Assembly (NCBI GenBank): GCA_903885865.1
Contig: CAISKH010000570.1
Location: 1-39,525, forward strand
Direction of reading: 5' to 3'
Length of the DNA: 39,525 nt
Source: an uncultured Mucilaginibacter sp.
GTDB taxonomy: Bacteria; Bacteroidota; Bacteroidia; Sphingobacteriales; Sphingobacteriaceae
The translations under genes were made by a program, and so were the position numbers. The notes beneath the pieces were generated by a model. It searched no databases. It saw only the letters and a program-made list of their open reading frames with translations, and was not told the origin of the DNA. The first letter of the stretch is position 1; each line of letters begins with the position of its first letter. Below are positions 8,218 through 38,824 of this stretch, piece by piece.

Positions 8218-9744
8218 TTACACATCCACTTTTGCGTATTGCGCAATTTTGCGGTATAGCTCATTGGGGTTAAATGGCTTGCTGATATAATCATTCATCC
8301 CTACAATATAGGCCTGGTCTTTAATATCAAGCATGGCCGACGCGGTAAGGGCAATTATAGGCAGATTCTTGAATTTTTCGCCGTCCAGTTTCCTGATCTC
8401 GATGGTAGTTTCGTAGCCATCCATTTCGGGCATTTGCAGGTCCATCAAAACCATGTGGTAATCGTTGGTTTGAACCAGTGTAAGGGCAATCTCGCCGTTT
8501 TCGGCAACATCGCATTCAATATCCCATAGCTTCATATATTGTTTGGCCAATATCACGTTGATCTGGTTATCTTCAGCAATTAACAGCTTAATGCCTTTTA
8601 AACTTTTGGTTTCTTGCTGAATGATATCATAACCGTTTTTTTCAAATTGCTTATCGCTGTTTTTCATTTTAAGGCTGAAATAAAATACCGAGCCTTTGCC
8701 CAACTCGCTTTTTACATTGATCTCGCTATCCATCAACTCCAGCAATTTTTTGGTTATCGTTAACCCCAAGCCGGTACCGCCAAACTTACGGGTAGTATCA
8801 GAGCTTGCCTGGGTAAAACTTTCAAATATATTGTTCAACTTATCTTTGTCTATACCTATGCCGGTATCAGCTACTTCAAAATCAATGGTGGTATACTCCG
8901 CTGTTTTTTTGTTGAGCGAGGCCGTAATGGTAACCTTACCCTCCTTAGTGAATTTTACTGCATTGCTTATTAAATTAGTTAATATTTGGCCCAGCCTTAC
9001 GGGGTCGCCTTTAATGGCGTTTGGCAGTTCCTGGTCTATCAGTAATTTAAGCTGAATGTCTTTTTCGTTTGCTTTTTGCAGCAGCGCCAGCCTTATATTG
9101 CTTATCAAATCCTTAATGCTAAAATCAGCTTCTTCAAATTCAACCTTACCAGCTTCAATTTTACTAAAGTCCAGTATATCATTGATCAGCACCAGCAGGT
9201 TCTCGGCCGAGAATTTCAACATTTTAAGGTACTCCATTTGCTCCTCCCGCGGCTCAAGCTGCAAAAGCAAATGGGTAAAACCAATTACCGCGTTCATGGG
9301 CGTCCTGATCTCATGGCTCATTGTCGACAGGAAATGCGATTTTGTTAGCGCCGCTTTTTCGGCCACGTCTTTTGATTCGATGAGTTGTAATTCCAGCTCC
9401 TTGGCCTTTTCTATTTGTTGTTGTAAGAATCGTATAATATCTATCAGGTCATCATCCGAACTTTCAATATCTGTTTTGGAGCCGGGCGACAAGGAACTTA
9501 TTGCCTTTTTTATTTCTGAAATAGACTGTTGTTTTATTTCATTCTCCTTTAACAGGAAATTGTTGATCTCCTGGTATTCGCGCTCGCTTATGGTAAAAGC
9601 ATGTTCGGATAGTTTTTTTGACTTCTCAAACGAACTGTATGAATTACTCACGCTCTCCAGGAAGTTCTGCATCGCCTCATCTTCCAGGCATTTATCCGGG
9701 ATAAATTTTATGATCTGCTTATTTAATATACTGTGATATTCCAT
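8218..9744 (-). CDS. Cytoplasmic hybrid sensor histidine kinase (HisKA-HATPase-REC)
   Basis: H-box FLSTMSHEIRTPMNAVIG; N-box NLISNAVKFT; DTGIG and GGTGLGL; receiver AEDN..LMDLQMP..KPF; no TM segment. Confidence 0.95.
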   Translation of the reverse strand: MEYHSILNKQIIKFIPDKCLEDEAMQNFLESVSNSYSSFEKSKKLSEHAFTISEREYQEINNFLLKENEIKQQSISEIKKAISSLSPGSKTDIESSDDDLIDIIRFLQQQIEKAKELELQLIESKDVAEKAALTKSHFLSTMSHEIRTPMNAVIGFTHLLLQLEPREEQMEYLKMLKFSAENLLVLINDILDFSKIEAGKVEFEEADFSIKDLISNIRLALLQKANEKDIQLKLLIDQELPNAIKGDPVRLGQILTNLISNAVKFTKEGKVTITASLNKKTAEYTTIDFEVADTGIGIDKDKLNNIFESFTQASSDTTRKFGGTGLGLTITKKLLELMDSEINVKSELGKGSVFYFSLKMKNSDKQFEKNGYDIIQQETKSLKGIKLLIAEDNQINVILAKQYMKLWDIECDVAENGEIALTLVQTNDYHMVLMDLQMPEMDGYETTIEIRKLDGEKFKNLPIIALTASAMLDIKDQAYIVGMNDYISKPFNPNELYRKIAQYAKVDV

Positions 9745-9763
9745 ACCCGATGGCGGCCTATTT

Positions 9764-10900
9764 CTAAAGTTCGGTAAATGTAGTAATAGTCATGGTTTGA
9801 TTGTGCAATTCGCATTGGGTGCTTTCGCTAAACGGTGAAATTTCGCCATAACTATAAAAACCTGTAATGGCAGTATCCGCGCCCAATATCTCTTTTGCAG
9901 CTTCTAATTCTTCATAAGTTCTTTCCTGTAAAATCAATTTGCGCCCAACGCAGCTAATTAATATGGCCAGGCCAGGACTGTTATTTTTGAGGCTGTTAAA
10001 CGAATTAGTAGCGGCTTTAGACGATGCGTCAATAATTTTATCAAAGTTGGCTTTCATCAATCTTACTTTGCCTCCCTCCGGAAGGTTGCCGGCAAAGGTC
10101 ATTGATTTTTCTTCCTCGTTAATGCTTAAAATAGTACGCACGAGGTTTTTGTCGCCGCCATTTACACGTAAAGATAGCGGAAAAAGCAGTGCCGACCCCG
10201 GCAATTCAACTACATATTCGCCCAGGTATTCTTTATAAAGGTCGAGCGCGTTTTTATGATCTATTTCATACAAAACATTTTTGTCAGACCGGGTAATGGT
10301 ACGCTCCTGCCCAAACTCATCCCAACCTCCCAACGAGCCATGGCCTATCAACATACCTTTGCCATAAAATCCAATGGCTGATACATTTCCCTGTGAGGGT
10401 ATTTCGTTAACCCCTGTGAACGTCTTTTCGAACCGGGCGGCATCGCCGGCTAAGCCTCCGGTTATTGGTACGTTGTGTTTATTGTTCTTATTGAGGCCAC
10501 TAACCAGTTCGCTGCCATTAATAAATGTGCCATCTGATATAACAAAAACACAATTCAGATCATCGCCCGATAGTTGGTCCATTAAAAAACGCCCAGTTTC
10601 AAAACTATTGCTATGGCGTTTTATATTTGTTTTAACCGTGCGCACACTGGTTTTTTCAAACTCAATAGCGGTAACTACTGCGCTGTTATCAAAAACCGAA
10701 TCGCCCAGTATCTCGCCCGACGTGGATGAAAATACAATATCGGCCTTTGAATATAAAGATTTTAAGTGCTCATATACTTCGGGTTTCACAATGCTGTCTG
10801 ATGATCCGAAAACCAGTACCAGTTGGCATTTAGCTGCATTTAATTCTGAAGGGTAGTCTTTCCAGGCCCCATTCACAAAATGATGTTGTTTGGTTCTCAT
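9764..10900 (-). CDS. FIST_N/FIST_C sensory protein (NosP-like)
   Basis: STSGEI, GGLAGD, LISCVGRK, GFYSYGEI, LHNQTMT motifs. Start is ATG 10900, or 10915 per the ORF track. Confidence 0.9.
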   Translation of the reverse strand: MRTKQHHFVNGAWKDYPSELNAAKCQLVLVFGSSDSIVKPEVYEHLKSLYSKADIVFSSTSGEILGDSVFDNSAVVTAIEFEKTSVRTVKTNIKRHSNSFETGRFLMDQLSGDDLNCVFVISDGTFINGSELVSGLNKNNKHNVPITGGLAGDAARFEKTFTGVNEIPSQGNVSAIGFYGKGMLIGHGSLGGWDEFGQERTITRSDKNVLYEIDHKNALDLYKEYLGEYVVELPGSALLFPLSLRVNGGDKNLVRTILSINEEEKSMTFAGNLPEGGKVRLMKANFDKIIDASSKAATNSFNSLKNNSPGLAILISCVGRKLILQERTYEELEAAKEILGADTAITGFYSYGEISPFSESTQCELHNQTMTITTFTEL

Positions 10901-11137
10901 TGTTGGTTCAATCAATAATTAGTGTAACGTAAATTTAAATAAAAATACAGGTTTATTAACTAATTTAAATTTATACGTGTATAAAATAATTATGGTTGTT
11001 TTTCAGCCTAACTTATTAATAATAAATATTTTTCGGAAAATAATTAACATTAACTTCATGGGTTTTGAAATGATTAATTATTATTTTTAACTTTAATCGT
11101 TAAGCGAATTTTATAGCCACCCTAATTAGCTATTGTC

Positions 11138-12586
11138 ATGATAAATATTTCTAAACGGTATGGCGTAGTTATTTTAATAACTATACTTTCCATCCAAAAC
11201 TCATTTAGCCAAACCCATAGCCGGGGTTTGGATTTTGACGATGCCGCATACGCTACGGCCCCAAAAAAAGCTAAACTTACCCGTGCACTTGATGTGCTGC
11301 CCGCGAAAGCATCGATAAAGCAGTTTGCGCCTTACCCTAAAACCCAGGACCAATATGGCACTTGCGCCGCGTGGGCATCGGCTTATTGCGGCCGCACTAT
11401 TGTTGACGCCATAAAAAACAACTGGACAGACCGTAATCAAATCACTAAAAATGCGTATTCCCCGGCCTTTTTGTTCCGCTTGTTAAGGCCCGATGATCCC
11501 GCCTGCGTGGGGGGCTCAAATATTGAGTTTGCTTTTGAGCTGATGAAGAATAAGGGAAGCATACCTTTTACCAGCCTGCCTTTGTTATGCGTACCAACCG
11601 TCGCCCCGGCCCAACTGGATATGGCATCATCTGCTAAAATTAAAGATTACGCGCGCTTGTTCGATGTTTATTCGGGCGACAATATTAAGGTTCAGGCGGT
11701 AAAAAAATCTATTTCCGAAAAAAAGCCGGTGGTAATAGGAATGCTTTGCCCGCCATCATTTGACTATGCGAGAGATTGCTGGCAACCTACCGAGCAGCCC
11801 CTAACCACTTATGGCGGCCACGCGATGTGTATTGTGGGATATGACGATGAGCAATATGGCGGCGCTTTTGAAGTTCAAAACAGCTGGGGGACCAACTGGG
11901 GCAACCAGGGCTATATCTGGATAAAATATACCGATATGGCCAAATTTGTAAAATACGCTTATGAGTTTGTTGATCTCCCGGACCCCAAACCCAATGTGCC
12001 CGACCTCTCGGGTTCATTAAGGCTGGCGCTTTCAACCGGGTTGGATATGCCTGTAAACCTCCTCGTTTCAACCCGGGGGCTTAAAGTTGTTGCCGCCGAT
12101 AAACCAATAAACAAAACACCCGAACCGTTAACCATTTATCAAACAGCAAGCACCTATACTTCGGGCACCAATTTCCGTATTTATATCACTAATGATGCCC
12201 CGGCCTATGTATATGCCATCAGTTCTGACCTGACCAACGCGGTTACCAAAATATTTCCGTATGCGGATGGGATAAGCGCCGTATTAAATTATAAAAAGAA
12301 TGATGTTGCCCTACCCGATGAGGACCATTACATACAGTTTGATAATGTGGCCGGAAAGGATTTTTTATGTGTACTGTATAGCAAAAACGAACTGAATATT
12401 AATGACCTGATAGCCAAAATAGGCACACAAACCGGTACGTTTAATGAACGGGTATTTGGCGCACTGGGCGAGCGTATGGTTGACCCGAAAAATGTTAAAT
12501 TTGATAGTGACAAGATCAAATTTTCGGGCAGCAGCGCTGATAAGCAGGATGTAGTGGCCCTGATGGTTGAACTTGATCATAAATAA
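11138..12586 (+). CDS. Secreted papain-like cysteine peptidase (C1A) with C-terminal DUF4384-like domain
   Basis: Signal peptide; Q70..C76 (QDQYGTCAAW), H228 (GGHAMCIVGY), N248 (QNSWGTNWG); C-terminal FRIYIT..AYVYAI..KIFP pattern. Confidence 0.9.
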   Translation: MINISKRYGVVILITILSIQNSFSQTHSRGLDFDDAAYATAPKKAKLTRALDVLPAKASIKQFAPYPKTQDQYGTCAAWASAYCGRTIVDAIKNNWTDRNQITKNAYSPAFLFRLLRPDDPACVGGSNIEFAFELMKNKGSIPFTSLPLLCVPTVAPAQLDMASSAKIKDYARLFDVYSGDNIKVQAVKKSISEKKPVVIGMLCPPSFDYARDCWQPTEQPLTTYGGHAMCIVGYDDEQYGGAFEVQNSWGTNWGNQGYIWIKYTDMAKFVKYAYEFVDLPDPKPNVPDLSGSLRLALSTGLDMPVNLLVSTRGLKVVAADKPINKTPEPLTIYQTASTYTSGTNFRIYITNDAPAYVYAISSDLTNAVTKIFPYADGISAVLNYKKNDVALPDEDHYIQFDNVAGKDFLCVLYSKNELNINDLIAKIGTQTGTFNERVFGALGERMVDPKNVKFDSDKIKFSGSSADKQDVVALMVELDHK

Positions 12587-12592
12587 GCGAAT

Positions 12593-14860
12593 ATGGATAA
12601 GATTTTTAAAAGGGCGGCTTTTATTTTGATGTGTTTACTGCTTTGCGGCATCGTTAAAGCGCAAAGTTTAATTTATTACAATGCTTTTAGCAAAGGCGAG
12701 TCTACATGGGGAAACTATGACGATGCCACAAGCAATGCCCGCATAGAAGGGGGTAAATACATACTTACACATAAACTGCATACCTCAACGGTTATGGCAC
12801 CCGAAATAAAGGTGGATTATAGCCGTAATTTTGCCATACAAACCGTTTTAACCCCCGTGGGCGTACAAAGCCGTTACGCTGCAGGGTTAACTTTTTTTGG
12901 GAAGGATTATAGTAATATATATTACTTCGGCATCGCCGCGGGCCAGTTCCTGGTAGGTAAGTTTGAAAACGGGGGCAATGTTACCATCGTAAACTGGACA
13001 CCCTCAACGGCCATTGCAACCGGTAACGCGGCCAATAAACTGCGTGTTGAAAAACTGGAGAGCAGCGTGAAGTTTTATATAAACGACATACTGGTTAAAG
13101 AGATACCCCCGCTGCTGCCTTTTGGAAATAGATTCGGCCCGGTAGTTATGGAGCAGCAGTCGGTAGCGTTTGATTATTTGAAACTGGCTTATTTAGCCGA
13201 TCCTTCTGTGCAAACAACAACTGTTGAGCCTATAAATAAATCGATCATTGAAACGGCTTACCATACCGATTTTGCTAAAGATGACGCGAACCAATGGGTT
13301 TTAGCGCCTGCGGATTCGTTAACAACTGCAATTACCGACAACCATTTTAAAATGGTGCGCATAGCCCGGTCAGGATATAACGTTTCGGTAACAGCGCCCG
13401 CGCTAAAGGTTGATATGAAGCGCGATTACCTGTTAGAAACCGAAGCAACGCATTATTCGGGCGTGCAAAACTTTGGTTACGGACTGGAGTTTGCAGGCGA
13501 CGAAAACCGAGTTTATCATTTCTGGATAGGCTGCACCGGCTATTATTATATCGGGTATAATGATAAGACAGGGTTTAATACCATCCTCGCCTGGACATCG
13601 TCTGACGCGATAAAAAAAGGCGACCTGGTAAAAAACAAACTGGGCATTCTGCATAAAAACGGACAGCTCAATTTTTATATTAACGACCAGCTGGTAACCT
13701 CGCACCCCGAGATAGAGTTTACCGGGTATAGGTTTGGTTTTGGCGTTTGTGCCAATCAAAACATAGGGTTTAAATATTTGACGTTTGGCTATACCGATAA
13801 AGCGCCTGCTCCCCAGGTTATAACCCAAAATGATGTTACCCCGCCCGAAATATATATTACCTCGCCAGAGGTTACGCGGGGGTTAAAAGTAGTGCAAAAC
13901 AGTGATGTGTTGCACGTTGCCGGTGTTGCCAAAGATGCCAGCGGCATATTTTCGGTTGTGGTAAACGGCATACAGGCTGCGGTTGATAAGGCAGGTAATT
14001 TTACCGTTGATGTGCCTATGGCCATAGGCGATAACCCGCTGATGGTGGTGGCTACCGATATGAATATGAATAAGGGCACTTACAACTTTCATATCGTTCG
14101 TAATAACATATCGGCAGCCACGCAGGCAACGGTACAACAAAGCGCGGCGCAGGGGAAATACTATGCCCTGTTAATTGGCGTACAGGATTATAAGGACCAA
14201 TCTATACCAAGTTTGGAGGGCCCTGTTGGCGACGCCAATACCTTGTTGAAATCGCTTACCAGTAACTATACCTTTGCTCCCGAAAATGTAACTGCCTTAA
14301 ATAATGCTACACGCGAGCAGTTTTTCCACGCGCTGGATGATCTGTCGAACAAAATTAAACCCGAAGATAACCTGCTGATATTTTATGCCGGGCACGGCTA
14401 CTATGATGAGGCGCATTTGCAGGGCTACTGGTACCCCGCCGACGCGGTGCTTAAACGCAGGGATACCTGGATATCAAACGCCGACCTGATAGACTATATA
14501 ACCGCCATAAAATCAAAACATACGCTATTAATAAGCGATGCTTGTTTTTCGGGGAGCATATTTAAAACCAGGGCCATTGATATGGCACCCAAGGATATAC
14601 AGGAACTGTATAAACTGCCCAGCCGCAAAGCCATGACCAGCGGCGCCATGAAGGAAGTACCCGATAAAAGCGTTTTTATAGAATACCTGGTAAAGCGCCT
14701 TAACCAAAATACAGATAACTTTTTACCTGCCGAACAATTATTTGCCAGCTTTAAAGCCGCGGTAATAAACAACAGCCCCAACGGCCAGGTGCCCCAATTT
14801 GGCGAGATCAGGGAGGCCGGTGATGAGGGAGGGGATTTTATTTTTATAAAGAAGCAGTAG
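12593..14860 (+). CDS. Secreted caspase-like (C14B ortho/metacaspase-type) peptidase with two ConA-like beta-sandwich domains and an Ig-like domain
   Basis: Signal peptide; duplicated WT.S.AI..G...NKL....FYIND.LV domains; DVTPPEIYITSP Ig-like domain; YALLIG, FYAGHG (H601), ISDACFSG (C651), terminal GGDFIF. Confidence 0.9.
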   Translation: MDKIFKRAAFILMCLLLCGIVKAQSLIYYNAFSKGESTWGNYDDATSNARIEGGKYILTHKLHTSTVMAPEIKVDYSRNFAIQTVLTPVGVQSRYAAGLTFFGKDYSNIYYFGIAAGQFLVGKFENGGNVTIVNWTPSTAIATGNAANKLRVEKLESSVKFYINDILVKEIPPLLPFGNRFGPVVMEQQSVAFDYLKLAYLADPSVQTTTVEPINKSIIETAYHTDFAKDDANQWVLAPADSLTTAITDNHFKMVRIARSGYNVSVTAPALKVDMKRDYLLETEATHYSGVQNFGYGLEFAGDENRVYHFWIGCTGYYYIGYNDKTGFNTILAWTSSDAIKKGDLVKNKLGILHKNGQLNFYINDQLVTSHPEIEFTGYRFGFGVCANQNIGFKYLTFGYTDKAPAPQVITQNDVTPPEIYITSPEVTRGLKVVQNSDVLHVAGVAKDASGIFSVVVNGIQAAVDKAGNFTVDVPMAIGDNPLMVVATDMNMNKGTYNFHIVRNNISAATQATVQQSAAQGKYYALLIGVQDYKDQSIPSLEGPVGDANTLLKSLTSNYTFAPENVTALNNATREQFFHALDDLSNKIKPEDNLLIFYAGHGYYDEAHLQGYWYPADAVLKRRDTWISNADLIDYITAIKSKHTLLISDACFSGSIFKTRAIDMAPKDIQELYKLPSRKAMTSGAMKEVPDKSVFIEYLVKRLNQNTDNFLPAEQLFASFKAAVINNSPNGQVPQFGEIREAGDEGGDFIFIKKQ

Positions 14861-24621: not shown

Positions 24622-25136
24622 TTACGTTCTTTGCTCCTAAAGAATAATAAGGCTGAAACCAGCATTAAAAATACGGTAAAAATTGTACTTAACACTACGC
24701 GGCCCAGCGTGTACCTGATCTCGGAAAAGCGAAAAACTTCGAGGTTAAACAAAAAGAAATGATGAAACAAAGTAAGTATAAGCGCGTAGGTAAAAAACCA
24801 CCTGAAACCCATTATGCTTAAGGTTGGTTCGGGCTCATTGTCAAAGCCTTCTTTTTGTACAGTTATGCTGATAAATAAGATACGAACAAATGCCAGCAGC
24901 ACACAGGCCGTTGCATGAAGGCCGGGCGTATCGTAAAAAGCATCAATAGTTAACCCCATTAAAAACGATACGGCAAACAATACCAGGTTAGGTGTTTCAA
25001 ACGGGAGCAGCAAAATAAAAAGAATATACAAATAGGGCGCAGACAGATCGTACAGCGTAATATTTTTCAATAAAAACACTTGTACAAAAACCAATAAAAT
25101 AAACCTTGCCAGGTTAACAATTATAGCCCTACTCAT
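24618..25136 (-). CDS. mreD: Rod shape-determining protein MreD
   Basis: Hydrophobic 172 aa with GLTIDAF; lies between mreC and mrdA. Confidence 0.9.
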   Translation of the reverse strand: MSRAIIVNLARFILLVFVQVFLLKNITLYDLSAPYLYILFILLLPFETPNLVLFAVSFLMGLTIDAFYDTPGLHATACVLLAFVRILFISITVQKEGFDNEPEPTLSIMGFRWFFTYALILTLFHHFFLFNLEVFRFSEIRYTLGRVVLSTIFTVFLMLVSALLFFRSKERK

Positions 25137-25962
25137 CTTTTTTTTCCTGGGCCTCCAGTCCCAATTGTTCTTTGGCCAGTTTGTTAACTACAACATATAC
25201 GTATTGTAGTTTGCTAAAATCGACAGATAAGGCAACTTCCATATTTAGTGACGAACCACCCTCTGTTGCACGCAGGTTACTTACTTTGCCATAAAGCAAG
25301 CCGGCCGGGAAAAGCGAATGTTCGGAACTAACTACTTTTTCGCCAAGCTTTGGCTGGGCGTTGTTGGATACATCTATCAGTAAGCCTTTATGTGGATCGA
25401 TTTTGCTGCCCCAGATAAACGAGCCGATATCTTTATGATCGGCCAACATTGCGCTGAAGCGGGTATCTTTATGTAAAACAGATTGCACAACCGCAAAGTG
25501 TTGTGAAACGTTAATTATTTTGCCTACTATCCCGGCATCGCAAATAACGCCCATACCTTTTTCTATATGGGCATTACTACCCAGGTTGATGGTGATATAA
25601 TTGCTGCGTCGGTTAACAGAGTTGTTGATAACCTTGGCTACAATATATTCATATTGCTGTTTGTAAATGGTATCGGTTATTTTGCGCTTTGCGATGCTAT
25701 CAATGTAAAATGACGACTTAAGCTGGTTGCGCAGCCGGGCATTTTGCCTTGCCAAACTATCATTAACCTCGCTTAAGGACAGATAGTCCTTCAAATGGTC
25801 TACCCGGGCATATAAATTACCGGTAACCTGGTTGGTGCTGTTAATGAATGTAGCTTTTTGAAAAGAATTGTATTTGATGTAGATAATGAGCGCACTCACC
25901 TCAAATATAATGAACAGAAAAAATGCGTTGTACTTAGTGATGAAGATCAAGAGGTTACGCAT
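25129..25962 (-). CDS. mreC: Rod shape-determining protein MreC
   Basis: N-terminal TM, LARQNARLR coiled coil, GIVGKI, FPAG. Confidence 0.95.
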   Translation of the reverse strand: MRNLLIFITKYNAFFLFIIFEVSALIIYIKYNSFQKATFINSTNQVTGNLYARVDHLKDYLSLSEVNDSLARQNARLRNQLKSSFYIDSIAKRKITDTIYKQQYEYIVAKVINNSVNRRSNYITINLGSNAHIEKGMGVICDAGIVGKIINVSQHFAVVQSVLHKDTRFSAMLADHKDIGSFIWGSKIDPHKGLLIDVSNNAQPKLGEKVVSSEHSLFPAGLLYGKVSNLRATEGGSSLNMEVALSVDFSKLQYVYVVVNKLAKEQLGLEAQEKKDE

Positions 25963-25964
25963 CT

Positions 25965-26000
25965 TTAGTGATTAGTTGACTGGTGATTAGAGATTAGTTG
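25965..26000 (+). repeat. Heptamer tandem array TTAGWGA (left arm)
   Basis: TTAGTGA TTAGTTG A CTGGTGA TTAGAGA TTAGTTG. Confidence 0.8.
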
Positions 26001-26355
26001 CCTGTTGTCTAAGATAATTAATATAACCATTTATTAATTTCATGCATTCTTCGCATTGCAAATTAAATTTCTCAAAAATTTCATTGCTGATAAATTTCAT
26101 ATCTAATGCGATAATAAGATGATCAATTGTCTCGGCGGCAGAACCTCGGGCATTTATTAAGAATTTTGAAGAATCCACATAATGAAATCTTCCATGTCCT
26201 TCCGCAATATTATTACCTATTGACCTGGACGACCGAATGATTTGATCGGCTAACCGATATTTTTCTTCGGCAAGAAAGCTTTTAACCAATTCATAAATAT
26301 CGTTTCGAAAAATACGCGACTTTTTCCATGCCTCAAGTTCGGTAAATCCTTTCAT
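25987..26355 (-). CDS. Four-helix-bundle protein (23S rRNA IVS-protein-like family)
   Basis: FTELEAWK, EEKYRLADQIIRSSRSIGNNIAEGHGR, FLINARGSAAE. Confidence 0.92.
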   Translation of the reverse strand: MKGFTELEAWKKSRIFRNDIYELVKSFLAEEKYRLADQIIRSSRSIGNNIAEGHGRFHYVDSSKFLINARGSAAETIDHLIIALDMKFISNEIFEKFNLQCEECMKLINGYINYLRQQATNL

Positions 26356-26388
26356 TAGTTAAAAATACATACTAATTACAAATTTCAC

Positions 26389-26424
26389 TCACTAATCACT
26401 AATTAACCAATCACTAATCTCTAA
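26389..26424 (-). repeat. Heptamer tandem array TCWCTAA (right arm, inverted relative to the left arm)
   Basis: TCACTAA TCACTAA TTAACCAA TCACTAA TCTCTAA, abutting the mreB stop. Confidence 0.85.
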
Positions 26425-27447
26425 TTACTGCATAAGAAATTTAAAATTACCAATATTTTTAAGGGCCGTACCTGTTCCGCGCACTACGGCGCGCAGCGGG
26501 TCTTCAGCAACGTGAACGGGCAGTTTTGTTTTGGCTGATATGCGCCTGTCTAAACCACGCAGTAAAGCACCACCACCGGTTAAATAAATGCCGGTTTGAT
26601 AAATATCTGCCGACAACTCAGGCGGGGTTATTTCTAAAGCTTTTAATATCGCTTCTTCAATTTTTGATATTGACTTATCTAAACAATGCGCTATTTCGGT
26701 ATACGATACCATGATCTGTTTAGGTACACCAGTCATCAGGTCGCGGCCTTGCACGGCAAAATCAGCAGGCGGGTCGGGCAATTCGGGCAATGCCGCGCCA
26801 ACCTCAATTTTAATTTTTTCGGCTGTACGGTCGCCTATCATAATATTATGCTGGCGGCGAATGTACTGCACAATATCCGAATCAAAATTATCACCCGCAA
26901 CCCGTATGGATTGGTCACAAACAATACCTGATAATGCAATAACCGCTATCTCGGTAGTGCCACCGCCAATATCAATGATCATATTACCCATGGGTTCTTC
27001 CACATCAATGCCAATACCTACGGCGGCAGCCATTGGTTCATGTATAAGGTAAACTTCTTTGGCACCGGCAATTTCGGCCGAGTCGCGCACGGCGCGTTTT
27101 TCAACTTCGGTAATGCCCGACGGGATGCAGATCACCATCCGTAACGACGGAAAGAACCATCCTTTGCCCTGGTTTATCATTTTTATCATCCCGCGTATCA
27201 TGTGTTCGGCTGCGTTGAAATCGGCAATTACACCATCCTTTAAAGGCCTAACGGTACGGATGTTATCATGTGTTTTACCTTCCATTTGCATGGCCTGTTT
27301 GCCAATGGCGATAACTTTATTGGTTATACGGTCAAAAGCTACTATTGACGGTTCGTCAACAACAACTTTATCATTATGTATAATGAGGGTATTTGCGGTA
27401 CCTAAATCAATCGCGATCTCTTGCGTAAAAAAATTAAATAATCCCAT
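26425..27447 (-). CDS. mreB: Rod shape-determining protein MreB
   Basis: IDLGTANT, EPMAAA, DIGGGTT, LTGGGALL. Confidence 0.98.
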   Translation of the reverse strand: MGLFNFFTQEIAIDLGTANTLIIHNDKVVVDEPSIVAFDRITNKVIAIGKQAMQMEGKTHDNIRTVRPLKDGVIADFNAAEHMIRGMIKMINQGKGWFFPSLRMVICIPSGITEVEKRAVRDSAEIAGAKEVYLIHEPMAAAVGIGIDVEEPMGNMIIDIGGGTTEIAVIALSGIVCDQSIRVAGDNFDSDIVQYIRRQHNIMIGDRTAEKIKIEVGAALPELPDPPADFAVQGRDLMTGVPKQIMVSYTEIAHCLDKSISKIEEAILKALEITPPELSADIYQTGIYLTGGGALLRGLDRRISAKTKLPVHVAEDPLRAVVRGTGTALKNIGNFKFLMQ

Positions 27448-27585
27448 ATCTCGTTTGCTTCAAAAAATAGTTTGCAAAGTTTATAAATTTAGTTGAATAT
27501 GTTGCATTTAGTTGAATAAGTTGAAATAGTTTTTATCATTATGATAAATAACTATTAAGCACTCACAATTTAGCTACTCACCAAC

Positions 27586-29134: not shown

Positions 29135-29142
29135 CAAAGGTA
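29135..29142 (-). promoter_or_regulatory. -7 promoter element (TACCTTTG) for purH
   Basis: TAnnTTTG on the minus strand, 22 bp upstream of the ATG. Confidence 0.7.
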
Positions 29143-29181
29143 GTGATTAGTGATTAGAGATTAGAGGTAAGAGGTTAGTTT
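29140..29181 (+). repeat. Heptamer tandem array TTAGWG(A/G)
   Basis: GTAGTGA TTAGTGA TTAGAGA TTAGAGG TAAGAGG TTAGTTT. Confidence 0.85.
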
Positions 29182-32893: not shown

Positions 32894-33187
32894 ATGCAGC
32901 TATCAGTTAATGACATACAAATAGTAAAGGATTATTTTTCGGAGCAACCGGTGATAAAGGCCTATTTATTTGGCTCATTTTCCCGGAGTGAAGCTGATGA
33001 TAATAGTGATGTGGATATATTAGTCGACCTGGATTATTCAAAACATATCGGGCTTGGATTTGTGACTATGCAATCAGAACTTCAGCAAAAGCTGCATAAA
33101 AAAATAGACCTTATCTCATCTAAAGCCGTTTCAAAATATATAAAGCCTTTTATCGAAAAAGACAAAGTTTTGATTTATGAAAGGTAA
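32894..33187 (+). CDS. Minimal nucleotidyltransferase antitoxin (MntA-like)
   Basis: FGSFSR..DVD (GSx10DxD); overlaps the downstream HEPN gene. Confidence 0.9.
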   Translation: MQLSVNDIQIVKDYFSEQPVIKAYLFGSFSRSEADDNSDVDILVDLDYSKHIGLGFVTMQSELQQKLHKKIDLISSKAVSKYIKPFIEKDKVLIYER

Positions 33188-33521
33188 AATTGGCGACCGG
33201 CAGCGGTTACTTCATATCTTAGAAGCGATCAACGAAATTCAGCTTTATACCTCAAAAACAGATTTAAAATCTTTTCTTAAAAACTCGATGATGCGATTTG
33301 CCTGCGTCAAACAAATTGAAATAATTGGCGAGGCAGCGAATACAATAACTCCCGAAACAAGGGCCATTTTTACTGATTTGGAATGGAAGCAGATAATAGG
33401 TATGCGCCACATTCTCGTTCATGAATATTTTGGTGTAGATTTCGATCTCGTTTGGCAAGTTATTATTGATGATCTTCCCAACTTGAAAGAGAAAACCCTT
33501 AAAGCAATCGATACATTATAA
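33177..33521 (+). CDS. HEPN/DUF86 ribonuclease toxin (HepT-like)
   Basis: EIIGEAA; RHILVHEY (Rx4HxY). Confidence 0.9.
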   Translation: MKGKIGDRQRLLHILEAINEIQLYTSKTDLKSFLKNSMMRFACVKQIEIIGEAANTITPETRAIFTDLEWKQIIGMRHILVHEYFGVDFDLVWQVIIDDLPNLKEKTLKAIDTL

Positions 33522-34257: not shown

Positions 34258-34292
34258 AGTCGGGAAGTCGGAAAGACCGTAAGTCCGTAAGT
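34258..34292 (+). repeat. Octamer tandem array
   Basis: AGTCGGGA AGTCGGAA AGACCGTA AGTCCGTA AGT. Confidence 0.7.
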
Positions 34293-35171: not shown

Positions 35172-35177
35172 TTATTT

Positions 35178-35295
35178 TTTATTTCGGATTTCGGAAGTGG
35201 GATTTCGGATTTGTTTTATGTTGAGTATATTTTTTAATAGGTACGCTAAAAGCTATATAAAATTCCGAAATCCCACTTCCGAAATCCGAAATAAA
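35178..35295. repeat. Perfect 32-bp inverted repeat built from ATTTCGG heptamers, with a 54-bp spacer
   Basis: TTTATTTCGGATTTCGGAAGTGGGATTTCGGA (35178-35209) and its exact reverse complement (35264-35295). Confidence 0.92.
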
Positions 35296-35298
35296 TCC

Positions 35299-35306
35299 TA
35301 CTTTTG
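35299..35306 (+). promoter_or_regulatory. -7 promoter element (TACTTTTG) for carA
   Basis: TAnnTTTG followed by CA. Confidence 0.7.
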
Positions 35307-37691: not shown

Positions 37692-37728
37692 TAATGACGC
37701 GATAAACTAATGACCAATGACTAATGAC
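37692..37728 (+). repeat. Heptamer array YAATGAC providing the permease ATG
   Basis: TAATGAC .. TAATGAC CAATGAC TAATGAC. Confidence 0.7.
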
Positions 37729-38824
37729 AAATAAACACTATAGTAACATCCGCGCAACGCTGGCCATTGCGCAGGCAAGTTTCCGTTCTATCATACGCAG
37801 CCCGTCATCGGTGGTATTTACGCTGCTTTTTCCGCTGATATTTATATTGGTGTTCGGGTTTATAAGCGGGGGCGGGGTTATTTCTGTTGATGTGGGCCTG
37901 GCCAAAACCAATGATACTATTAACCCGGTTTACCAGGGATTGAAAAGGGTGGGTGTGATACATTTGATACATACCCAAACAGAGCAGGAGATGAAAACTA
38001 ACCTGCAAAAAGGCACTATTGACGCCATAATGGATATCCAAAAAAATACAGCCCCTCCGTATTATACTGTAAATATTCAGTACAGCAAAGCATCGGGCGA
38101 TAAGGAGAATATTTTGAAATCAGCGTTAAACAATATTTTTTTCCAGATCAATACCCATCTGCCCGGCGCGCCGCCGCCGGTTGCTGTAATAAAAGAGGTA
38201 GCCGTGCAAAGCCGCGAGTATAAAACCATTGATTTTATTTTACCCGGACAACTGGGTTTCGCGTTGTTAAGCACAGGGGTGTTCGGTACCGCGTTTGTGT
38301 TTTTAAGTCTGCGCTTAACGCTGGTTATTAAACGGTTTTTTGCCACACCGGTAAAACGGTACAGCATAGTAGTTGGCGAGGCTATGGCACGCATAACTTT
38401 CGCGCTTATCGGCGCTTTATTTATTATCTCCATTGGGCATCTGGCATTTGGTTTTACGCTGGTGCATGGGTTTGTCACGGTTGTCAATATGCTCATACTC
38501 TCCTTTATTGGGGTGCTCGTTTTTATGGGTTTTGGGTTTACCGTATCGGGTATTGCAAAAAATGAAACTTCGGTGCCGCCTATCGCTAACCTGATCACGC
38601 TGCCGCAGTTTTTGCTGTCGGGTACGTTTTTCTCTATCAATGTGTTCCCGGCATGGCTGCAGCCCATTAGCAGGGCGCTGCCGCTAACTTATTTAAATGA
38701 TGCCATGCGTAAAGTAGCTTTTGAAGGCGCCAGTTTGATGGATGTATCGCACCAGATACTCGTCCTATGCCTTTGGGGCGTGGGGATATATTTTGTGGCG
38801 GTGAAGACGTTTAAGTGGGAGTAA
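37724..38824 (+). CDS. ABC-2 type transporter permease
   Basis: 1+5 TM layout; FILPG, KRFFATP, LSGTFF..FPAWLQ..LPLTY. Confidence 0.93.
   Translation: MTNKHYSNIRATLAIAQASFRSIIRSPSSVVFTLLFPLIFILVFGFISGGGVISVDVGLAKTNDTINPVYQGLKRVGVIHLIHTQTEQEMKTNLQKGTIDAIMDIQKNTAPPYYTVNIQYSKASGDKENILKSALNNIFFQINTHLPGAPPPVAVIKEVAVQSREYKTIDFILPGQLGFALLSTGVFGTAFVFLSLRLTLVIKRFFATPVKRYSIVVGEAMARITFALIGALFIISIGHLAFGFTLVHGFVTVVNMLILSFIGVLVFMGFGFTVSGIAKNETSVPPIANLITLPQFLLSGTFFSINVFPAWLQPISRALPLTYLNDAMRKVAFEGASLMDVSHQILVLCLWGVGIYFVAVKTFKWE

Follow-up and report, generated by a model that had tools for sequence, protein, structure and literature searches.

Among the closest described relatives of the element reported here are the intervening sequences (IVS) of rRNA genes, known from helix 45 in Coxiella and from Leptospira (PMC4990558), in which an open reading frame (ORF) of the S23p protein family lies within complementary, stem-forming borders; as described there, these elements are patchily distributed among relatives, their ORFs decay, and cutting by RNase III is known for them. 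Members of this four-helix-bundle family have had solved structures and no function for years. Intergenic hairpins are also known from REPIN-RAYT systems (PMC3116915), where many inverted-repeat hairpins occur and each family is tied to one clade of a gene flanked by those repeats, and non-homologous spacers at one gene pair, running against the gene tree, have been described as switched intergenic regions or horizontal regulatory transfer (PMC5890482). The DGR protein Avd (4DWL, 8UB7; 10.1101/2023.10.23.563531) shares the S23p fold and is a pentamer binding RNA, its five protomers contacting one stem-loop. Moreover, TAACTGA heptamer repeats of Beggiatoaceae, Cyanobacteria and Bacteroidetes occur in runs of 2-6 copies that stop a few bases short of start codons (PMC4679880); that paper describes direct repeats of one unit, apparently with no paired arms or family switching, its main text does not contain the terms "four helix", "intervening" or "S23", it suggests a repeat-binding protein as the possible mobile component, and its supplements list ORFs next to repeats.

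The window analysed here, a stretch of 39,525 nucleotides from an uncultured Mucilaginibacter sp. (contig CAISKH010000570.1), links that protein family with intergenic heptamer arrays, for which a mechanism of spread has been missing: between mreB and mreC it carries a cassette, that is, a four-helix-bundle ORF bracketed by inverted heptamer arrays (arms). Like an rRNA IVS, the locus has complementary borders that form a long predicted stem around the ORF, but it does not belong to that class, as it lies between two protein genes and the window has no Rfam match. Whereas IVS occupy rRNA, the cassettes occupy protein-gene junctions, their arms are tandem 7-8-mers of about 27 clade-matched families, and their gene-less forms switch families at one site. 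REPIN-RAYT systems are similar in layout, with many inverted-repeat hairpins between genes, but here the cassette gene does not encode an HUH tyrosine transposase, the arms are tandem heptamers rather than small palindromes, and the evidence leans to exchange between genomes at fixed sites rather than copying to random sites. The mreB-mreC junction has the non-homologous spacers and the gene-tree incongruence by which switched intergenic regions are defined, but differs from them in its single architecture (inverted 4-5-unit arrays), its defined cargo-linked families and its switching in most sister pairs. Assignment to the DGRs fails as well: the protein shares 8% identity with Avd, the cassette has no linked reverse transcriptase (RT), template or variable repeat, and no RT family was detected in the window or found in the source genome, which is 84% complete. 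Nor is an insertion sequence or MITE indicated: an NCBIfam scan of 34 window ORFs detected no transposase or integrase family (the cargo being TIGR02436), in agreement with the original prediction made from the letters alone.

No published description of heptamer-armed cassettes of the TIGR02436 family, or of their family switching, was found in a search mainly of main texts in the open literature, and the cassettes point to exchangeable operon hairpins as a class that has been little described. What is new, as judged from the sequence comparisons below, is that the junction is not a clean site and that hairpin families are swapped there even between close relatives. Within essential operons (mre, ribosomal-protein, atp, dcw, nuo), entire spacers are replaced from one close species to the next with the architecture kept, which matters for the evolution of operon expression and for the reading of intergenic DNA in comparative genomics.

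Anatomy of the mreB-mreC cassette

On the mRNA strand, the letters give the order mreB stop, array, ORF, array, AG and mreC ATG (Table 1), as had been predicted. The 460-base cassette fills the mreB-mreC gap of 462 bases, and the last codons and TAA of the ORF lie inside the downstream array; both points had been claimed and hold. The 3' arm ends 2 nt upstream of the mreC ATG at 25962. The 5' arm reads TTAGAGA TTAGTGA TTGGTTA A TTAGTGA TTAGTGA and the 3' arm CAACTAA TCTCTAA TCACCAG T CAACTAA TCACTAA on the same strand, and the predicted formula of five TTAGWGA-type units per arm therefore needs amending: four units fit it, whereas one variant unit and one extra base make the arm 36 rather than 35 bases long.

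Table 1. Positions of the cassette, its neighbours and related repeats in the 39,525-nt window
Feature	Position	Strand	Remark
mreB	26425..27447	-	Stop TAA 26427-26425 directly abuts the 5' arm; MreB identity confirmed by profile
5' arm	26389..26424	-	36 nt, five heptamer units, AGAGATT (TTAGAGA/TTAGTGA) family
AT-rich inner spacer and ORF initiation region	26356..26388	-	33 nt
Four-helix-bundle ORF	25987..26355	-	122 aa, TIGR02436/PF05635
3' arm	25965..26000	-	36 nt, reverse complement of the 5' arm; contains the last ORF codons and TAA
mreC	25129..25962	-	MreC identity confirmed by profile
First 27 nt of mreC	25936..25962	-	7 differences from the closest relative (L069); neighbouring 30-nt stretches 1 and 0
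Lone AGAGATT-family 3'-type arm upstream of purH	29141..29178	-	Abuts TACCTTTG
Gene-less inverted heptamer hairpin, panB-carA	35172..35292	.	ATTTCGG family

The mutual complementarity of the arrays, likewise predicted, was evident in an arm-to-arm match of 74-83% and in the predicted fold of a 491-base RNA, in which the arms pair (z = -3.2; 1/100 shuffles as good). The stem score of the cassette was 16.5, compared with a maximum of 14 among 715 shuffled controls, and the arm duplex energy was -32.3 kcal/mol; Tandem Repeats Finder detected the upstream arm only (score 45). We infer that the ORF is probably co-transcribed with mreB and mreC, because the coding strand of the cassette contains neither a terminator-like site nor TANNTTTG, which we take to be the Bacteroidota consensus promoter motif (-7 element).

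Gene and arms as one unit

The source genome has eight family matches at seven loci, all seven with inverted arms by eye and with five different units among them, and all 32 same-genus genomes surveyed carry the family (184 matches in total). In a set of 143 family loci (130 of the 184 matches, the seven own loci and six other filled mreB junctions), the stem score reached 14 or more at 127, compared with 1/715 shuffles, and 9/143 reached 14 in the direct-orientation control. Among 455 small ORFs of the source genome, 13 reached this score, five of them from the TIGR02436 family, leaving 8/450 others; the enrichment of inverted arrays around family loci anticipated in the original prediction was thereby borne out. 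At 125/139 loci the arm begins within 15 nt of the upstream stop, and at 113/134 the distance from its end to the next start is -10 to 25 nt; the cassettes sit patchily between same-strand genes, at 48 operon junctions. There is little doubt that gene and arms form one unit. The proposal of a mobile cassette is thus supported in part, by the linkage of gene and arms, the patchiness and the 48 junctions, but not in its picture of a clean-site insertion made tolerable by looping out; nor does the family behave as a stably vertical gene without array enrichment, given patchy cassettes, many junctions and enriched arms. The ORF is broken or truncated at 12/143 family loci. In the source genome, three of the seven family copies are broken by a stop or frameshift with the arms kept (C515, C40 and C464:16641-16942).

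The arms cluster into 27 unit families, the labels of which are approximate, a few of them combining 7-mers with 8-mers. Mapped onto the protein tree, the unit underwent 29 changes (minimum 26; shuffled mean 114 +/- 2.5), and 53 changes of site were counted over 48 sites; this tree is built on few columns, many of its forks are open, and much of the match between unit and clade is explained by physical linkage alone. With this qualification, the repeat unit was shown by the comparison of arms and proteins to track the protein clade. A single clade can occupy several junctions, many of them neighbours, and several clades occur at certain junctions, for example putative metH-metF (named by reading). 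One site, s0 (L068, L160, L168 and others), read as lying between miaB and the gene of a sigma-54-type regulator, holds the same clade and unit in 17/32 genomes, so that each clade may have a home site.

Stems are 28-35 bp long, corresponding to arms of 4-5 units. For filled cassettes, the arm-to-arm stem score within a locus was 20.9, compared with 18.3 for arms combined from the same site in another genome and 15.7 for another site; for gene-less hairpins the within-locus score was only 17.0 versus 16.2 for the same site in another genome. Across 168 distant pairs, the two arms were 0.71 and 0.80 identical, compared with 0.48 for ORF third positions and 0.63 for the inner spacer (shuffled 0.58). 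One unpublished genome (G002) contributes one entry each to the 143 loci, to the 100 junctions described below (one of the seven filled), to the 20 filled ones and to the count of RT matches, and is the sole support for no claim.

Filled and gene-less states of the junction

The states of the junction were compared across 100 distinct mreB-mreC junctions, obtained from 30 + 80 loci minus 10 duplicates. Seven were filled, all with the AGAGATT family, and 93 were gene-less, with spacers of 68-143 nt that by eye contain inverted 7-/8-mer arrays with a short loop (except L031 and L032) and belong to about ten repeat families; mreB directly abutted mreC at 0/100. The filled and repeat-only states expected by the original prediction were therefore both present, whereas the empty, abutting state was not seen, and its premise that mreB and mreC are normally adjacent was not upheld for this bacterial family. 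In other genera, 22/22 genomes were gene-less at this junction, 21 of them looking like such hairpins by eye. Since all 93 gene-less junctions are 68-143 bases long and nearly all bear hairpins, other genera being alike, the locus is, on this comparative reading, an old hairpin site that carries a gene rather than a clean site that received an insertion.

Scanning 229 genus genomes with two patterns (gap 430-551 nt, exact anchors, by which some filled junctions are missed) gave 21 matches, of which 20 were true filled junctions (L255 being false), all with AGAGATT-type arms and with ORFs open over the part examined. Other families at this junction are gene-less only, the filled state being AGAGATT in 20/20; because only this family was seen filled, the view of other-family hairpins as remnants of cassettes at this site lacks demonstration. 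L266 (a probable indel) and loci with short flanks were left out of the distance comparisons. The ORF tree and the flank tree had several groups in common and conflicted in others, with synonymous sites saturated. The ORF grouped strongly (100/99) with those of L250 and L251 and with two copies upstream of purH. Judged from these trees, the cassette at mreB-mreC is an old resident with some movement. Recent copying from the pheT paralogue of the same genome was considered and not supported (pS 0.78, different clades of the DNA tree), the two being grouped weakly on the protein tree. Contigs assembled from four DNA runs of one study contained no joints but, none of them reaching across the cassette, are uninformative; 15 runs listed for the sequence included no RNA run, which carries no information on expression.

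Family switching at fixed junctions

On the mreB+mreC tree of 100 tips, the junction family (11 unit labels) changes 57 times, compared with 66 +/- 2.4 after shuffling (lowest of 500 shuffles 57), and the family thus carries little phylogenetic signal. It differs in 24/35 sister pairs; the four closest pairs (distance < 0.05) agree, whereas 7/10 at 0.05-0.10 differ. The closest relative of the source locus (L069), with flanks 91% identical, has a gene-less hairpin of another family.

The same was seen in a wider survey covering 300 kb from each of five close genomes, where at least two families occurred at 8/23 arm-bearing co-directional junctions common to at least three of the five. At rpsN-rpsH (named by reading protein ends) there were three families at 0.99 flank identity, and at rpsC-rplP (named by reading) the hairpin was present in some of the close genomes only. 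Both arms were of one family at 47/48 two-arm junctions of the five genomes and at 62/70 in the source genome. Spacer identity fell below 0.6 at 11/23 arm sites and at 10/37 arm-free sites, several of the latter with other palindromic repeats, and thus spacer turnover is high in general. Switching of families at fixed junctions was shown by these comparisons. Two further loci deserve mention. At the L133 junction, an AAGAATC hairpin is nested within leftover AGAGATT ends, as if a new array had overwritten the interior of an old one. At rpsN-rpsH (L283:3252, L296:19223, L312:13483, L327:8324 and L342:15552), the swapped hairpin is followed, ahead of the start codon, by about 65 nt that are nearly invariant and may be a regulatory RNA.

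Evidence for a probable short-tract exchange

The exchange of hairpin alleles between genomes by short tracts is probable on several lines of comparison. Sister pairs under a distance of 0.3 (6/35 at 0.3 or more being left out) were compared for third-position divergence near the junction, taken relative to that in distant windows. Within 60 nt, the 19 pairs with a switch exceeded the 10 in which the family is the same (Mann-Whitney p = 0.006), and the excess faded by about 120 nt; only 2/18 strong splits were in conflict between the mreB and mreC trees. In the source locus, third positions differ from L069 by 50% over nt 1-30 of mreC and by 5% and 0% in the windows either side. The first 27 nt of mreC (Table 1) are thus a probable co-conversion tract of the junction swap. 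The corresponding stretch of L069 matches lineages otherwise about 45% diverged, and transfer may have run in either direction.

Furthermore, 41/44 testable gene-less hairpins were closer to same-site copies in distant genomes than to same-family copies elsewhere, although this is a soft test, as copies of equal length score better by global identity and repeats tend to converge; the site-specific alleles are non-monophyletic and scattered on the tree. The all-pairs co-conversion signal was small (2-3%) and on the mreB side only, one switch pair (L110/L116) had zero flank differences, and the raised divergence near the junction could instead be codon co-adaptation to the new hairpin. The junction family was within the genome's own cassette set in 9/27 cases versus 4.7 expected (p = 0.012; incomplete catalogue, related genomes), and this excess over chance indicates an in-genome link. 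DNA palindromes are established as break-prone (PMC4245961). For SbcD, the 84% complete source genome gave a sub-threshold match only.

The four-helix-bundle protein

The predicted four-helix-bundle identity of the ORF is supported by profile scores of 110.6 bits for TIGR02436 (cut-off 24) and 114.1 bits for PF05635 (cut-off 33.8). A single-sequence fold gave a pLDDT of 49, and an alignment-based model with a pLDDT of 95 was used instead, its alignment leaving out 13 broken or partial proteins as well as L002 and L018. The model has a TM of 0.85-0.89 to 2GSC, 0.76-0.79 to 2RLD and about 0.76-0.79 to Avd, and the protein has a weak PHROG Avd match (E = 0.006). With high confidence, the modelled product has the Avd/S23p fold; structure entries of family relatives have five chains each. 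Its net charge is about neutral, and residues Q38, R41, S45, N49, E52 and E75 are near-invariant. Over 153 pairs of 18 filled-junction ORFs, pN was 0.12 and pS 0.76, with a median dN/dS of about 0.06 in the 57 unsaturated pairs, and purifying selection on the ORF at mreB-mreC was thus shown at the level of codon substitutions.

Binding of the protein to its own arms is our best guess, at roughly even odds, because purifying selection, the near-invariant Q-R-S-N-E-E set, the clade-matched conserved arms and the analogy of the Avd fold all point that way. Two other ideas were rejected. A defence or phage gene is not indicated, as there was no PADLOC match and no tblastn match among 50,697 phage records. 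Likewise, a correspondence of five units to five protomers does not hold, as 7-mer arms have 4 or 5 units (257/358) and 8-mer arms mostly 4 (44/68); what is constant is therefore the arm length (28-35 nt) rather than the unit count.

Mechanism and competing explanations

The reading that we favour, with a probability of about 0.5 as a whole, is that of a hairpin site with alleles swapped by short-tract recombination and a protein that binds its own repeat family. The ORF would be co-transcribed with mreB and mreC, and the arms would form a stem of 30-35 bp, either in RNA or in DNA that is single-stranded. Such stems would render the junction prone to cutting and replacement, in which the conserved gene ends would serve as homology and only tens of flank bases would be copied. 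Gene-less hairpins would be deletion products of cassettes that then circulate as junction alleles, and the pentameric protein would recognise its own unit family and thereby help the cassette to persist or spread.

A less probable, live rival is that the hairpin is mainly an mRNA element of the host, cut by RNase III like the rRNA IVS or acting on stability or translation coupling, such that any family suffices, alleles drift by ordinary recombination and the gene is a passenger or a regulator of the stem. In line with this, a hairpin is kept at mreB-mreC family-wide while its sequence changes, the arms start close behind the upstream stop at most loci, stems are 28-35 bp long, the source genome encodes RNase III, and RNase III excises the Coxiella IVS that carries an S23p ORF (PMC4990558). 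Gene-less stems also lean slightly to pairing on the mRNA strand (G.U 111 versus A.C 79; lower mRNA-strand energy in 63/93). Filled stems, however, have no such G.U excess (171 versus A.C 184), and selection for RNA-strand pairing was thus not seen in them; the predicted pairing of the arms in RNA or single-stranded DNA is supported as a stem, but finds no support as one specific to RNA. Moreover, this rival leaves the conservation of arm sequence, not just of pairing, and the match to clades unexplained, and the hairpin is missing at some junctions in close relatives (rpsC-rplP). It can be compatible with the exchange of alleles bound by their own protein, as a second layer if not as a rival. 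Copying within the genome in the manner of REPIN-RAYT, each four-helix-bundle clade spreading its own gene-less hairpins alone or with a host HUH transposase, is improbable. It would account for the one gene clade per repeat family (as in the model of PMC3116915), for the 75 gene-less hairpins of the same families in the source genome, for the excess of own-set junction families, for the recurrence of one clade at several, often neighbouring, junctions and for the presence or absence of the rpsC-rplP hairpin. Yet the predicted structure has no transposase fold, the four Y1 transposase matches in the source genome lack such arms (two being at contig ends with short flanks), 18/27 junction families have no matching cassette in the partial catalogue, and hairpins resemble same-site copies elsewhere more closely, with flanks co-converted.

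Retrohoming, in which an Avd-like pentamer holds the excised hairpin RNA for an RT acting in trans and a short cDNA overwrites the junction, as in DGRs, is very unlikely. The fold common to the protein and Avd, the PHROG match and the very short replacement tracts speak for it, but no RT was found in the source genome, RT matches of mixed sizes occur in only 49/81 genus genomes, three single-contig genomes with 5-7 cassettes (G016, G019 and G025) lack an RT match, and the donors appear to be other genomes; an obligate RT partner, neither linked nor universal, is not supported. The least likely explanation is an ordinary vertical gene with flanking repeats from local slippage. Although the ORF tree at mreB-mreC partly matches the flank tree (with synonymous sites saturated), the arms switch family together, between genomes a few percent apart and from a fixed family set, arm length is tight at 4-5 units, and the gene lies at mreB-mreC in only 20/229 genomes; this explanation is already contradicted by the family switching data.

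A bolder extension of allele exchange, and an unlikely one, is that the four-helix-bundle proteins are sequence-specific readers of their own repeats that run a nuclease-free homing, about 27 protein-repeat lineages overwriting hairpins at dozens of core-operon landing sites via tracts of about 100 bases. If true, the S23p/IVS family would acquire a function, the intergenic heptamer arrays of Bacteroidota and cyanobacteria would have an explanation, and an ancestry would suggest itself for the DGR protein Avd.

Other repeats and features of the window

The source genome has 82 inverted-repeat pairs, 75 of them with loops < 200 nt, compared with 0 in each of two shuffles. The neighbours of the 75 gene-less hairpins are 48 co-directional, 11 divergent and 6 convergent, with 8 at contig ends and 2 inside ORFs, near the background of 692/224/145. 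The TANNTTTG motif lies within 25 nt after the arm end in 16/164 cases (82 hairpins), compared with 100/2526 random intergenic 31-mers, with instances in the window at 29135-29142 and 35299-35306; some arms may thus overlap promoters. In addition to the arm before purH, where some relatives have a filled cassette, lone 3'-type arms lie before mreB (27487-27531, 9-mer), an RluA-family gene (34265-34292, 8-mer) and an ABC permease gene (37706-37732, 7-mer), the purH arm being a 7-mer; the latter two of these three come after a short GC-rich palindrome directly following the upstream stop.

Elsewhere in the genome, a gene for a GxxExxY protein (TIGR04256) has 9-mer-like inverted arms, being one of three such small genes (C134:3534-3942, C372:679-1075 and C630:588-891), and the two other repeat-bracketed small genes, with palindromic flanks, are presumably DUF559-like and GIY-YIG-like, which suggests several parallel repeat-plus-cargo families. 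Within the window, an MntA/HepT-like type VII toxin-antitoxin pair (32894-33521), below NCBIfam cut-offs, is without inverted arms. Finally, with all scores below family cut-offs, the region 8218-14860 contains a hybrid histidine kinase with a NosP-like neighbour, and divergent from them two ORFs, one unannotated (482 aa) and one whose product of 755 aa has a caspase-like domain.
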